Sequence record: NC_041919.1
Origin: Escherichia phage HP3
Strand: one strand, 5' to 3'
DNA: 64,000 bases
Of this stretch, positions 1 through 53,069 are shown piece after piece. The number at the start of each line of letters is the position of its first letter. Positions within the stretch are counted from its first letter, which is position 1. The translations under genes and the position numbers were made by a program. Under the pieces are notes generated by a model. The model was not told the origin of the DNA, ran no database searches, and saw only the letters and a list, made by a program, of their open reading frames with translations.

Positions 1-1486
<1,486 letters not shown>

Positions 1487-49692: not shown

Positions 49693-50166
49693 ATGTTATT
49701 GACTGGCAAATTATACAAAGAAGAAAAACAGAAATTTTATAATGCACAAAACGGTAAATGCTTAATTTGCCAACGAGAACTAAATCCTGATGTTCAAGCT
49801 AATCACCTTGACCATGATCATGAATTAAATGGACCAAAAGCAGGAAAGGTACGTGGATTGCTTTGTAATCTCTGCAATGCCGCAGAAGGTCAAATGAAGC
49901 ATAAATTTAATCGTTCTGGCTTAAAGGGACAAGGTGTTGATTATCTTGAATGGTTAGAAAATTTACTTACTTATTTAAAATCCGATTACACCCAAAATAA
50001 TATTCACCCTAACTTTATTGGAGATAAATCAAAGGAATTTTCTCGTTTAGGAAAAGAGGAAATGATGGCTGAGATGCTTCAAAGAGGATTTGAATATAAT
50101 GAATCTGACACTAAAACACAGTTAATAGCTTCATTTAAGAAGCAGCTTAGAAAGAGTTTAAAATGA
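49693..50166 (+). CDS. 49: Endonuclease VII (Holliday junction resolvase)
   Basis: 157 aa; MLLTGKLYKEEKQKFYNAQNGKCLICQREL...HLDHDHE matches recalled T4 gp49. Confidence 0.9.
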   Translation: MLLTGKLYKEEKQKFYNAQNGKCLICQRELNPDVQANHLDHDHELNGPKAGKVRGLLCNLCNAAEGQMKHKFNRSGLKGQGVDYLEWLENLLTYLKSDYTQNNIHPNFIGDKSKEFSRLGKEEMMAEMLQRGFEYNESDTKTQLIASFKKQLRKSLK

Positions 50167-51980
50167 CAATTGAAAAAGAAATTGAAGGATTGATTCATAA
50201 AACTAATAAAGACCTTTTGAACGAGAATGCTAATAAAGATTCTCGTGTTTTTCCAACTCAACGGGACCTTATGGCTGGTATTGTGTCTAAACACATTGCC
50301 AAAAATATGGTCCCGTCTTTTATTATGAAAGCGCATGAAAGCGGAATTATTCATTTCCATGATATTGATTATTCCCCTGCTCTTCCATTTACTAATTGTT
50401 GTTTAGTAGATTTAAAAGGAATGCTTGAGAACGGATTTAAGCTTGGTAATGCGCAGATTGAAACTCCTAAATCAATCGGTGTTGCTACTGCAATTATGGC
50501 ACAAATTACTGCACAGGTTGCTTCCCATCAATATGGCGGAACGACTTTTGCGAATGTAGATAAAGTACTTTCTCCTTATGTTAAACGCACATATGCAAAA
50601 CATATTGAGGATGCAGAAAAATGGCAAATCGCTGATGCGTTGAATTATGCTCAATCTAAAACAGAAAAAGACGTATACGATGCATTCCAAGCTTATGAAT
50701 ATGAAGTAAATACTCTCTTTAGTTCAAACGGACAAACACCTTTTGTAACAATTACATTTGGTACGGGAACTGACTGGACTGAACGAATGATTCAGAAAGC
50801 AATTCTGAAAAATCGTATTAAAGGTCTTGGTCGTGATGGGATAACTCCTATTTTCCCTAAGCTTGTTATGTTTGTTGAAGAAGGTGTTAATCTTTATAAA
50901 GACGATCCGAACTATGATATTAAGCAGCTTGCTCTAGAGTGTGCAAGCAAAAGGATGTATCCTGATATTATTTCAGCTAAGAACAATAAAGCTATCACTG
51001 GTTCATCTGTTCCTGTTTCTCCAATGGGTTGCCGTAGTTTCTTGAGCGTATGGAAAGATTCGACTGGTAATGAAATTCTTGATGGACGTAATAATCTTGG
51101 TGTTGTAACACTGAATCTTCCTCGTATTGCGTTGGATTCTTATATTGGAACACAGTTCAATGAACAGAAATTTGTTAAATTATTCAATGAGCGAATGGAT
51201 TTATGTTTTGAAGCTTTGATGTGTAGAATTAGTTCCTTAAAAGGAGTTAAAGCGACTGTTGCTCCTATTCTTTACCAAGAAGGTGCATTCGGGGTTCGTC
51301 TTAAACCTGATGACGATATAATTGAGTTATTTAAAAATGGTAGAAGTTCAGTGTCTTTAGGATACATTGGTATTCACGAATTGAATATTCTTGTCGGTCG
51401 TGATATTGGACAGGAAATTTTAACTAAAATGAATGCTCGTCTTAAACAGTGGACTGAAAGAACTGGGTTTGCTTTTAGCTTGTATTCTACTCCTGCTGAA
51501 AACCTTTGCTATCGCTTCTGTAAACTTGATACAGAAAAATATGGAAGTGTAAAGGATGTTACTGATAAAGGCTGGTACACTAACAGTTTCCATGTTTCAG
51601 TAGAAGAAAATATTACTCCGTTTGAAAAGATTTCTCGCGAAGCCCCGTATCATTTCATTGCAACAGGTGGTCACATTTCTTATGTTGAACTTCCTGATAT
51701 GAAAAATAACTTAAAAGGTCTTGAGGCTGTATGGGATTATGCTGCACAACATTTAGATTATTTTGGTGTTAATATGCCAGTAGATAAATGTTTTACGTGT
51801 GGAAGTACCCATGAAATGACTCCTACTGAAAACGGGTTTGTTTGTTCTATTTGTGGAGAAACTGATCCTAAAAAGATGAACACAATAAGAAGAACATGCG
51901 GTTATTTGGGAAACCCGAACGAACGCGGATTTAATCTCGGTAAAAATAAAGAAATCATGCATAGGGTTAAACACCAATGA
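50163..51980 (+). CDS. nrdD: Anaerobic ribonucleotide reductase large subunit NrdD (intronless)
   Basis: 605 aa continuous ORF; C-terminal glycyl radical motif RRTCGYLGNP; Cys-rich zinc site CFTCGS...CSICG. Confidence 0.9.
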   Translation: MTIEKEIEGLIHKTNKDLLNENANKDSRVFPTQRDLMAGIVSKHIAKNMVPSFIMKAHESGIIHFHDIDYSPALPFTNCCLVDLKGMLENGFKLGNAQIETPKSIGVATAIMAQITAQVASHQYGGTTFANVDKVLSPYVKRTYAKHIEDAEKWQIADALNYAQSKTEKDVYDAFQAYEYEVNTLFSSNGQTPFVTITFGTGTDWTERMIQKAILKNRIKGLGRDGITPIFPKLVMFVEEGVNLYKDDPNYDIKQLALECASKRMYPDIISAKNNKAITGSSVPVSPMGCRSFLSVWKDSTGNEILDGRNNLGVVTLNLPRIALDSYIGTQFNEQKFVKLFNERMDLCFEALMCRISSLKGVKATVAPILYQEGAFGVRLKPDDDIIELFKNGRSSVSLGYIGIHELNILVGRDIGQEILTKMNARLKQWTERTGFAFSLYSTPAENLCYRFCKLDTEKYGSVKDVTDKGWYTNSFHVSVEENITPFEKISREAPYHFIATGGHISYVELPDMKNNLKGLEAVWDYAAQHLDYFGVNMPVDKCFTCGSTHEMTPTENGFVCSICGETDPKKMNTIRRTCGYLGNPNERGFNLGKNKEIMHRVKHQ

Positions 51981-52609
51981 ATTATGACAGAATCTATTCA
52001 AATCTAGTTAATTCTGCTGAACACCCATCTAAGCCCCGTCAAACTAAAGCCGGGTATGAACTTCATCATATAATTCCAAGAAGTATGGGTGGTTCAGATG
52101 ATTTAGACAACTTAGTATTTTTAACTTATAAGGCCCACTATACTGCTCACCATTTATTGGCTAAAATATATGGTGGAAAGATGTATGATGCATATTGGAT
52201 AATGAGTAATAGTAAGCATAGAAAAGTTACTTCTTCACAATACGCGTATGCAAAAGCTAAGAAATTTGAAAATCAGCGTGGCGCAAAAAGAAGCGATAAA
52301 ACTAAGAAGCTAATGAGCATAGCTAGGTCTAAAGTAACTCTTCCTGATGATTTTGGAAAAAGGATATCTGATGGGCTAACAGGAAGAACTTTGTCTACTA
52401 GTCATAAAGAGCATATCAAAAATAGTTCTAGAAATCGCTTTAACACCAAAACGGTTATTGGCTATTCACCAGACGGAAATACAATAGAACTAACTGGAGC
52501 AACTGAAATAAGAAATGCAGGATTTTTTCATTCTGCTGTTTATAAATGTTGCAAAGGAATTCAATCTATTCATAAGGGATATACTTGGAAATATAAAGAT
52601 GAATTATGA
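51977..52609 (+). CDS. Free-standing HNH homing-endonuclease-like protein
   Basis: 210 aa; HNH motif ELHHIIPRSMGGSDDLDNLVFLTYKAHYTAHH; first 20 nt nearly identical to the nrdG start. Confidence 0.75.
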   Translation: MNYDRIYSNLVNSAEHPSKPRQTKAGYELHHIIPRSMGGSDDLDNLVFLTYKAHYTAHHLLAKIYGGKMYDAYWIMSNSKHRKVTSSQYAYAKAKKFENQRGAKRSDKTKKLMSIARSKVTLPDDFGKRISDGLTGRTLSTSHKEHIKNSSRNRFNTKTVIGYSPDGNTIELTGATEIRNAGFFHSAVYKCCKGIQSIHKGYTWKYKDEL

Positions 52610-53069
52610 TAGAATTTATCCATGCGATTTCGTTAACGGCCCTGGATGTAGGGTCGTTCTCTTCGTCACTGGATGTTTGCATAAATGCGAAGGTTGTTAT
52701 AATCGTAGTACTTGGAATGCTCGTAACGGACAGTTATTCACTATGAATACCGTTAAAGAACTTGCGTCCCATTTAAGCAAATCGTATATCCAAGGCCTTA
52801 CCTTAACCGGTGGTGACCCACTTTATCCACAGAACCGAGAAGAGATTTCAAATTTAGTTTCTTGGGTTAAAGCAAGATTTCCTGAGAAAGACATTTGGTT
52901 GTGGACAGGATATAAGTTTGAAGATATTAAACAACTAGAAATGCTTAAATATGTTGATGTTATTATTGATGGGAAGTATGAGAAAAATCTTCCGACCAAA
53001 AAGCTGTGGCGAGGATCAGATAATCAGCGACTTTGGTCAAATACCGATGGGGTGTGGACACATGATTAA
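52599..53069 (+). CDS. nrdG: Anaerobic RNR activating enzyme NrdG (radical SAM)
   Basis: 156 aa from the internal ATG (MNYDRIYPCDF...); CLHKCEGCYN cluster; same length as T4 NrdG. Confidence 0.85.
   Translation: MNYDRIYPCDFVNGPGCRVVLFVTGCLHKCEGCYNRSTWNARNGQLFTMNTVKELASHLSKSYIQGLTLTGGDPLYPQNREEISNLVSWVKARFPEKDIWLWTGYKFEDIKQLEMLKYVDVIIDGKYEKNLPTKKLWRGSDNQRLWSNTDGVWTHD

Follow-up and report, generated by a model that had tools for sequence, protein, structure and literature searches.

mobC at the nrdD-nrdG junction of an HP3.1-like Tequatrovirus: a probable in-frame homing endonuclease insertion within the 5' end of nrdG

Several phage endonuclease genes resemble the element described here in family, position or layout. 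Sandegren et al. 2005 reportedly stated that DNA cutting had by then been shown for no mob gene. T4 MobE, encoded between nrdA and nrdB, belongs to the same Mob HNH family as MobC, which by tblastn is approximately 30% identical to RB7 mobE. The mobE gene has no promoter of its own within the ribonucleotide reductase operon, its start overlaps the upstream stop, and the target of its product is the 5' end of the downstream gene (PMC2790892, PMC2988022). MobE introduces a strand-specific nick in T2 nrdB and drives co-conversion (Wilson and Edgell 2009, PMC2790892); the mobE papers examined describe no duplication of the nrdB start. Nicking has been demonstrated for MobE, unlike MobC, whose nuclease role is predicted, and a 2010 review of T4 mobile elements gave neither a determined activity nor a known target for MobC (PMC2988022). 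SegH, found in T6, RB3 and other phages, occupies the same nrdD-nrdG interval as mobC and is likewise sporadic (Sandegren et al. 2005), but its nuclease family is another one (TIGR01453-like GIY-YIG). The segH reading frame has a start of its own, preceded by a non-coding spacer, includes no codons taken from nrdG and accompanies an nrdD gene with a diverged 3' end. A Mob-type HNH gene, the mobE of Aeromonas phage Aeh1, reportedly lies inside the nrdA coding sequence with function kept, nrdA staying split in two polypeptides (Friedrich et al. 2007; Crona et al. 2011, PMC3045599). The HNH nicking enzyme I-HmuI of Bacillus phage SPO1 (PDB 1U3E) may share with MobC an elongated modular layout, in which enzymes of its kind have an N-terminal HNH domain and then an extended DNA-binding region closed by a helix-turn-helix module; I-HmuI is intron-encoded, and the match to MobC is a resemblance rather than a demonstrated membership.

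The window analysed here is a 64,000-nucleotide stretch of Escherichia phage HP3 (NC_041919.1), whose features at the nrdD-nrdG junction are collected in Table 1. Between positions 51700 and 52900, the window shares 100% identity with Escherichia phage HP3.1 and 98.8% with T4, with mobC annotated under the match. The 210-aa HNH ORF that the first-pass annotation had flagged upstream of nrdG matches T4 MobC (NP_049689) at 209 of 210 residues and 632 of 633 nucleotides, and lies in the same interval in the same orientation. By sequence and place, it is the orthologue of T4 MobC; that is, the flagged ORF is mobC, long annotated in T4 as a selfish endonuclease gene, and the element was already known. 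T4 likewise shows the repeated MNYDRIY start, and its mobC overlaps nrdD by the same ATGA and nrdG by the same 11 nt. Because T4 has the identical repeat, reading the gene as an insertion stands, but not as an event that is new relative to T4.

Table 1. Features at the nrdD-nrdG junction (window coordinates)
Feature	Coordinates	Strand	Evidence
nrdD, anaerobic ribonucleotide reductase large subunit, 605 aa, one ORF	50163..51980	+	Pfam NRDD (1.3e-171); T4 alignment; T4 annotation
ATGA overlap of nrdD stop (TGA) and mobC start (ATG)	51977..51980	+	Sequence
Upstream copy of nrdG 5' end = mobC codons 1-7 (MNYDRIY)	51977..51997	+	End of megablast homology; allele comparison
mobC, free-standing HNH homing endonuclease gene, 210 aa	51977..52609	+	T4 identity; T4 annotation; PF01844; phrog_655
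HNH catalytic core, MobC residues 28-58 (ELHHIIPRSMGGSDDLDNLVFLTYKAHYTAH)	52058..52150	+	Pfam; PDB matches; invariant residues
MobC C-terminal module, residues 155-207, ending GYTWKY; putative DNA-binding domain	52439..52597	+	I-HmuI match; phrog_20162
Downstream copy = functional nrdG start (MNYDRIY), moving with the mobC cassette	52599..52619	+	Allele comparison
11-nt overlap of mobC 3' end (...KDEL, stop TGA) and nrdG start	52599..52609	+	Sequence; ORF list
nrdG, anaerobic RNR activating protein (NrdG-type radical-SAM activase family), 156 aa, mosaic	52599..53069	+	Pfam Fer4_12 (2e-50); binned identities

The assignment of MobC to the HNH endonucleases agrees across several searches. Pfam HNH (PF01844) matched residues 28-50 at 26.9 bits (gathering cut-off, 21.4), residues 25-58 were covered by PDB sequence matches to the HNH domains of solved structures, and the family alignment shows no variation at H30, H31, N45, H54 and H58. 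MobC matched phrog_655 (homing endonuclease) at 3.9e-43, and phrog_20162 matched residues 145-209. NCBIfam holds no MobC-specific family and gave only an IscB HNH match below threshold. The module at residues 155-207 is a putative DNA-binding domain; its sequence match to I-HmuI residues 118-171 is weak (E = 0.34). I-HmuI was also the top PDB fold match to the MobC model (E = 3e-3 over 82 columns, TM 0.22-0.25), a model of moderate confidence (pLDDT 73.9, with 53-73 in the C-terminal half), and these weak PDB links were kept out of the argument on mechanism. A word-indexed protein search returned 12 distant relatives, T4 MobC not being among them, and served the N-terminal alignment and structure prediction only.

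The two MNYDRIY starts, at 51977 and 52599, were confirmed as first described. The first 21 bases are ATGAATTATGACAGAATCTAT at 51977-51997 and ATGAATTATGATAGAATTTAT at 52599-52619, with 19 of 21 identical; a repeat finder extended the match to 24 nt (88% identity, spacing 622 nt). At three or fewer mismatches the 21-mer occurs in only these two places in the window, whereas shuffling gives a chance expectation of 0.02 and two matches were reached in none of 100 shuffles. The repeat by itself is nevertheless no proof of duplication, because the peptides are the same, the codons are AT-rich and five of the seven residues match the consensus of the native Mob HNH family. With identical peptides and AT-rich codon usage, nucleotide identity would, on reasoning, not exceed the codon-usage expectation and so adds little. 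The native start of the family is MNYxKIY, within a consensus of MNYxKxYxxLIxxA that MobC residues 6-14 fit without an indel. Of the family representatives, 102 of 148 start with M.Y...Y and 54 with MNY..IY; one member (P0069), which lies among baseplate genes (gp5-like on one side, gp6-like on the other) and away from any nrdG, starts with MNYDRIY, and in KP27 the gene directly upstream of nrdG is MobC-like and unfused, starting independently with MNYQKIY. These observations speak for a reading in which mobC brought a start of its own and entered precisely between nrdD and nrdG, the two N-termini coinciding and nothing being duplicated. We consider this improbable, since D4 is rare in the Mob family, and since comparison with other phages, rather than the repeat, is what establishes from sequence that the 5' end of nrdG is duplicated.

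In that comparison, T2, RB51 and Klebsiella phage 5N have no insert at the nrdD-nrdG junction. In T2 and RB51, the same ATGA overlap links nrdD directly to nrdG, and the ATG of mobC stands exactly where the nrdG ATG stands in insert-free phages, overlapping the upstream stop, which counts against an independent start. In megablast searches, insert-free phages match the window up to query base 298 (window position 51997) and no further. These data support an in-frame insertion of mobC approximately 20 bases into nrdG, within its first seven codons. The resident nrdG starts with MNY in E. coli phages and with MNF in Klebsiella phages, which allows the two copies to be tracked by allele. The mobC of Klebsiella phage Wolf_ER13 begins with ATGAATTTCGACAGAATCTA (MNF...), and its bases 1-20 equal the first 20 nt of 5N nrdG; its F3 (TTC) is the resident Jiaodavirus nrdG allele, as opposed to the Y3 of all 102 motif-bearing family members. 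In the window, bases 1-9 of the upstream copy are of the Tequatrovirus resident type, and bases 10-20 are identical to the nrdG of 5N, a Jiaodavirus. The nrdG downstream of mobC in Wolf_ER13 is of the T4 type, and the downstream copy is identical in T4, the window and Wolf_ER13 despite their differing resident alleles. These alleles identify the upstream copy as the start of the resident nrdG and assign the downstream copy to the cassette, and coincidence of the N-termini is largely refuted by the allele tracking. The comparison also reversed one earlier proposal, namely that the gene had copied the nrdG start: mobC instead sits in nrdG after approximately 20 nt and uses the resident ATG (MNF in Wolf_ER13 versus MNY in T4). 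A free-standing HNH homing gene at nrdD-nrdG, with the 5' end of nrdG present twice, was borne out by T2, RB51 and 5N. The footprint had been called typical of homing genes, which held for the insertion itself but not for MNYDRIY as a purely copied sequence, as it is partly the native Mob start.

A second HNH gene, often also annotated as "mobC", is found at the same site in phages such as Ozark, PST, UFV-AREG1 and Klebsiella phage SmallBear_ER8. Like mobC, it uses the resident nrdG start, matches phrog_655 and runs into a replacement nrdG start, within which its stop codon falls after the ending ...WKYINEL. It differs in its length of 279 aa, its 13 captured nrdG codons versus 7 in mobC, and its nrdG 5' allele (PCCF), and its product shares only 38% identity with MobC over a 60-residue HNH core. 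The first 40 nt of this gene are exactly those of the resident nrdG, of T2 type in Ozark and of 5N type in SmallBear_ER8, its own family-type helix following about 25 residues further in, which again speaks against coincident native starts. The paired sequences also bear on staggered cleavage and fill-in at insertion, the way in which transposons duplicate a target site. Direct repeats of approximately 21 nt on both sides of the insert are what such an event would leave. However, the copies are not equivalent, as the upstream one tracks the host allele and the downstream one tracks the cassette; the repeat measures 20-21 nt for mobC, whereas the second HNH gene has one of 40 nt; mobC uses 11 bases of the downstream copy for its own C-terminus and stop; and neither a transposase among the Pfam domains nor terminal inverted repeats were found. 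With unequal copies and no transposase domain, a transposable element with target-site duplication was rejected, and we regard this origin as scarcely credible.

The occurrence of mobC is sporadic: it was present in 30 of 831 phage records matching the region, and tblastn gave 30 records at an identity of at least 99% and no MobC homologue between 60% and 99%. Since only 30 of 831 records carry mobC, the possibility that the same HNH gene is present in all T-even phages, which would make it ancestral, does not hold. An exact-pattern scan of IMG/VR for the left junction of mobC (GACAGAATCTATTCAAATCTAGTT) returned no match. The same site is occupied elsewhere by the second HNH gene (32 records) and by the GIY-YIG gene segH (71-73 records), so that three different endonuclease genes are found at nrdD-nrdG. 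As with homing genes, mobC is sporadic among close relatives and the junction is clean where it is absent. An alternative account of this pattern places mobC in the common ancestor of T4-like phages, followed by precise deletion, for example by recombination between the 21-nt copies. Direct repeats around mobC could in principle allow such a deletion and leave an intact nrdD-nrdG junction. We judge this highly improbable, given the three different genes at one site and given that mobC is 99.5-100% identical at the nucleotide level, whereas nrdD exons (96.2%), the 3' thirds of nrdG (~71%) and the left flanks (non-homologous) are far more diverged. In Tequatroviruses, moreover, the T4-type nrdG 5' segment occurs only with mobC among the records listed. 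Ancestral presence with repeated loss was rejected, the near-identity of mobC arguing against it.

Evidence of movement between phages came from the nrdG downstream of mobC, for which binned identities and mismatch counts were compared against T2, RB51, 5N and Wolf_ER13. In the window, nrdG bases 1-90 (52599-52688) are of the cassette type, bases 91-300 (52689-52898) are of the Jiaodavirus type (8 mismatches to 5N and 90 to T2), and bases 301-471 (52899-53069) are of the Tequatrovirus type (2 mismatches to T2 and 50 to 5N). By these counts, the mobC cassette in T4 and in the window also brought approximately 210 bases of Klebsiella-phage-type nrdG. The mobC genes of the window and Wolf_ER13 differ at 3 of 633 nt, although the left flanks are non-homologous and the 3' thirds of nrdG differ at 49 of 171 nt. 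Thus, near-identical mobC and an adjoining 210-nt nrdG tract of Jiaodavirus type point, on comparative evidence, to horizontal spread with co-conversion. The direction of transfer would be from a Jiaodavirus-like donor into the T4 lineage, as read from one mosaic tract, and stretches of microhomology 9-20 nt long appear to be where the left junctions arose. We give about an even chance to the broader proposal that two HNH genes have each captured the nrdG start (to codon 7 in mobC and codon 13 in the Ozark type), use the resident ATG and carry a spare nrdG 5' end, and that mobC passed with hardly a change between E. coli Tequatroviruses and Jiaodavirus-like phages of Klebsiella even though a few retained nrdG bases were its only left-hand homology, making T4 nrdG a chimera with bases 91-300 from a Jiaodavirus-like donor. 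A 2012 paper noted that the crossing of phage genera by a homing endonuclease gene with very short left-hand homology had not been convincingly shown (PMC3468402). The present comparison offers evidence for such a crossing, which is of modest wider interest. The start-capture anatomy and the cross-genus transfer were not found in the literature searched, and Sandegren et al. 2005 and Miller et al. 2003 may cover part of them.

We consider it very probable that the element is mobC, the T4 free-standing HNH homing endonuclease gene, lying in an HP3.1-like Tequatrovirus in frame within the 5' end of nrdG and bringing its own complete replacement nrdG start. As the cassette would enter approximately 20 bases into the resident nrdG, mobC would be translated from the resident nrdG ATG; the overlap of that ATG with the nrdD stop in ATGA implies translational coupling to nrdD. 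The nrdG ATG supplied by the cassette precedes the mobC stop by 11 bases, an arrangement that restores nrdG and would keep it coupled in the operon. Here nrdG remains whole through its duplicated 5' end, with only 7 codons donated to the endonuclease, in contrast to the split nrdA of Aeh1. A scan for sigma-70 promoters and terminators was at background (6 sites versus 7.6 expected). By analogy with MobE and I-HmuI, one would expect MobC to nick or cleave the 5' region of nrdG in phages lacking the insert during mixed infection, and recombinational repair from the mobC-bearing genome would copy mobC along with the adjacent nrdG. The comparative details predict that the MobC cut site lies in the first ~40 bases of nrdG. 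The differences between the downstream nrdG copy and the insert-free alleles are mostly synonymous, which was counted against the MobC model and leaves any immunity of mobC-bearing genomes to cutting hypothetical. The original fusion probably arose by recombination across microhomology between a native Mob start (MNYxKIY) and an nrdG start (MNY/F-DR-I/F-Y). Given the native Mob start, the fusion of mobC to nrdG is in register with the family consensus and the shared MNYDRIY is partly a pre-existing similarity, which probably supplied the microhomology for an in-register fusion. If coupling is read correctly from the overlaps, a selfish gene can reside in an operon without breaking translational coupling.

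For annotation, the value of these results lies in assigning the ORF as mobC, the nrdG start at 52599 rather than at the upstream in-frame ATG at 52515, and nrdD as intron-free; the element itself is textbook T4 biology. In its host genome T4 differs from the window, as was first noted for nrdD: alignment of the two nrdD genes showed a single 1033-nt gap with an exon identity of 96.2%, and the T4 insert, annotated there as a group I intron with I-TevII, follows the base matching window position 50700, where nrdD runs on uninterrupted.

The 210-aa HNH ORF immediately upstream of nrdG is T4 mobC. Between 51700 and 52900, the window is 100% identical to Escherichia phages HP3.1 and HP3.2 and 98.8% identical to T4, in which the matching ORF is annotated as mobC. 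Comparison of the HNH protein with T4 Mob proteins, as recommended in the first-pass annotation, revealed 209/210 residues identical to MobC (632/633 nt for the gene), and both starts recur unchanged in T4; the flagged ORF is therefore an already known gene. A 2010 review of T4 mobile elements (PMC2988022) classes mobC among the free-standing HNH endonuclease genes, places its insertion between nrdG and nrdD, and gives its activity as not determined and its target as unknown. The feature itself is real and had been read correctly: the MNYDRIY start claimed for both genes was borne out, with 19/21 bases identical between ATGAATTATGACAGAATCTAT in the ORF and ATGAATTATGATAGAATTTAT in nrdG, and no further copy of the 21-mer at ≤3 mismatches was found within the window (shuffle expectation, 0.02 matches). 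A repeat finder returned a 24-nt direct repeat with a spacing of 622 nt. The HNH core of MobC is intact according to Pfam, PDB sequence matches, and the family alignment. The protein ends in ...WKYKDEL, and its TGA lies 8 nt beyond the nrdG ATG, which produces an 11-nt overlap.

Locations of genes, nrdG tracts, and related features (window positions unless another record or nrdG bases are named)
Feature	Location	Strand	Remarks
gene 49 (endonuclease VII)	49693-50166	+	
nrdD	50163-51980	+	605 aa
mobC (210-aa ORF)	51977-52609	+	Pfam HNH, above threshold
nrdG	52599-53069	+	156 aa; NrdG-type radical-SAM activase family, 2e-50
nrdG, cassette type	nrdG bases 1-90		0 mismatches to Wolf_ER13
nrdG, Jiaodavirus type	nrdG bases 91-300		8 mismatches to 5N, 90 to T2
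nrdG, Tequatrovirus type	nrdG bases 301-471		2 mismatches to T2, 50 to 5N
Second HNH gene, Ozark	L005 2278-3117		279 aa
Second HNH gene, SmallBear_ER8	L008 2464-3300		279 aa
MobC-like gene, Klebsiella phage KP27	L006 2501-3142		44% identity
Small ORF, Jiaodavirus-type Klebsiella phages	L007, L008 and L009 2259-2498		~77 aa
nrdG as annotated, Wolf_ER13	L007 3002-3556		184 aa; window equivalent 52515-53069
nrdG as annotated, T6 (RefSeq)	L004 3179-3571		130 aa
nrdG as annotated, Ozark (RefSeq)	L005 3185-3577		130 aa

T2 and RB51 have an nrdG that starts MNYDRFYPCDFVNG, its ATG overlapping the nrdD stop as ATGA. The same ATGA overlap links nrdD and mobC in the window, and insert-free phages are homologous to the window as far as 51997, the final base of the upstream copy. 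Insert-free 5N has an nrdG that starts ATGAATTTCGACAGAATCTACCC (MNFDRIYPS...), the first 20 nt of which form the start of Wolf_ER13 mobC (ATGAATTTCGACAGAATCTATTCAAAT, MNFDRIYSN...), but the nrdG located 3' of that mobC is of the T4 type (MNYDRIYPCDF). This combination identifies the upstream copy as the start of the nrdG native to the host phage, and the downstream one as that which moves with the cassette, i.e., mobC plus a replacement nrdG 5' end. The junctions of T2, RB51, and 5N thus support the proposed insertion with a duplicated nrdG 5' end; the proposal that the endonuclease gene had copied this start did not hold, since the upstream copy is the resident one. In Jiaodavirus-type Klebsiella phages (Wolf_ER13, SmallBear_ER8, and 5N), a small ORF of ~77 aa, annotated as hypothetical in one record and as MazG-like in another, overlaps nrdD at its 3' end as well as the start of nrdG or of the endonuclease gene, and stands in place of the direct nrdD-nrdG overlap of T4-like coliphages.

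The shared MNYDRIY peptide by itself is no proof of duplication, because Mob-family HNH proteins natively start alike (MNYxKIYxxLIxxA). Among 148 family cluster representatives, 102 have an M.Y...Y start and 54 an MNY..IY start, and one, encoded between baseplate genes and not close to any nrdG, starts MNYDRIY. Pure coincidence of the MobC and NrdG N-termini, which such native starts favor, is nonetheless improbable and is contradicted by the 5N nrdG allele at the start of Wolf_ER13 mobC and the resulting F3, at a position that is Y3 in every family member with the motif. Duplication is established, at the level of sequence comparison, by this allele tracking together with F3. MobC residues 6-14 match the family consensus without an indel, and the nrdG-mob fusion is therefore in register; the simplest account of its origin would be recombination of an nrdG start with a native mob start across chance similarity. 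The confident N-terminal helix of the MobC model (residues 1-10, mean pLDDT 92) fits a possible constraint on this segment. The MobC-like gene of KP27 (Slopekvirus) is probably related to the T4 arrangement but unfused: it adjoins nrdG upstream, lies 1.5 kb away from nrdD, and begins beyond a spacer with a start of its own, MNYQKIY. This gene appears to be sporadic as well, because the KP27 record notes KP15 homologues for its neighbors but none for it.

We found mobC in 30 of the 831 phage records matching a 1.2-kb query, about half of the 30 being T4 strains; a search of phage records returned no MobC homologues at 60%-99% identity. The same interval holds a different HNH gene of 279 aa in 32 records (Ozark, PST, UFV-AREG1, and ten Klebsiella phages) and the GIY-YIG gene segH in 71-73 records (T6, RB3, PP01, and others), and is insert-free in T2, RB51, and 5N. 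Presence of mobC in all T-even phages, which would have made it ancestral, was thus not observed. These phage comparisons contradict both an ancestral mobC followed by repeated precise loss, which is very unlikely, and a transposon-type target-site duplication, which is scarcely credible. The second HNH gene captures the nrdG start as mobC does, and more of it: its opening 40 nt are those of T2 nrdG in Ozark and those of 5N nrdG in SmallBear_ER8, and MNYDRIYPCCF, a replacement start for nrdG, lies 3' of it. It has the HNH core alone in common with T4 MobC, although some records label it 'mobC' too. In the E. coli phage records, a second match occurs elsewhere in the genome.

Between the window and Wolf_ER13, mobC differs at 3/633 nt, two of the three being in the resident F3 codon, whereas the DNA to its left is unrelated (nrdD 3' end versus small ORF) and the nrdG 3' third differs at 49/171 nt. 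Mismatch counts against T2, 5N, and Wolf_ER13 resolve nrdG of the window and T4 into a three-part mosaic, with bases 91-300 showing ~96-97% identity to Klebsiella Jiaodavirus nrdG and ~56% to T2. Co-conversion during homing out of a Jiaodavirus-like donor would leave this pattern, and the comparison suggests a Klebsiella-phage-like donor as the source from which T4 acquired mobC and, with it, part of its nrdG. Consistent with such a donor, bases 10-20 of T4 mobC (GACAGAATCTA) are of the 5N nrdG type; bases 1-9 are of the T2 type, and the left crossover of the T4 lineage therefore falls within about CAATGAATT. In Escherichia phage 215Ecol030PP and relatives (about eight records, 95-96% match), mobC lies 12 nt past a T6-type nrdD stop without overlap, and a shared CATGCATAGG marks the point where the T6-type nrdD 3' end passes into the terminal ~20 nt of an nrdD end of the T4 type (L010 2240-2300). 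Because of these two junctions, the left ends of mobC look like short-microhomology events; repair of endonuclease breaks via short microhomology is known from T4 (Parker et al. 1999, as cited in PMC2790892). The nrdD of 215Ecol030PP is annotated as two pieces (1-530 and 950-2281), pointing to an intron or some other insert.

The nrdD intron was said to be absent here and present in T4, and indeed a 1033-nt T4 insert with I-TevII is missing from the window, where the empty site follows 50700; exon identity to T4 is 96.2%. This site is ~1.3 kb from mobC (51977). Since co-conversion in T4 homing extends up to 2 kb (PMC2790892), a MobC-induced event could take the T4 nrdD intron along in trans, modeled on MobE, which carries the nrdB intron in this manner; the window phage has mobC and lacks the intron.

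For the steps beyond insertion anatomy, distribution, and nrdG mosaicism, we infer that ribosomes re-initiating at the nrdD stop would make MobC. The mobC start has no usefully spaced Shine-Dalgarno sequence, and the 2010 review expressed the same doubt. By analogy with MobE, which nicks or cuts nrdB (PMC2790892), MobC may nick or cut insert-free nrdG close to the insertion point, and repair would then copy mobC with neighboring nrdG sequence. NrdG translation in mobC-carrying phages probably depends on ribosomes completing mobC. The best PDB fold match of the MobC model is I-HmuI, a weak match. Three aspects may be novel or have received little description: that the nrdG start was captured, that a further HNH gene is built in this way, and that T4 nrdG includes a tract of Jiaodavirus type.

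Within the 3' part of mobC (52517-52548 and 52592-52599) lie a 7-bp hairpin with a T-rich run behind it and two one-mismatch versions of the T4 late-promoter box TATAAATA, namely, TATAAATG at 52541 and TATAAAGA at 52592. The nrdG start varies between public annotations: an upstream in-frame ATG within mobC is used in Wolf_ER13 and an internal Met in T6 and Ozark, and the conserved MNYDR start gives a 156-aa nrdG in these three phages and the window alike.
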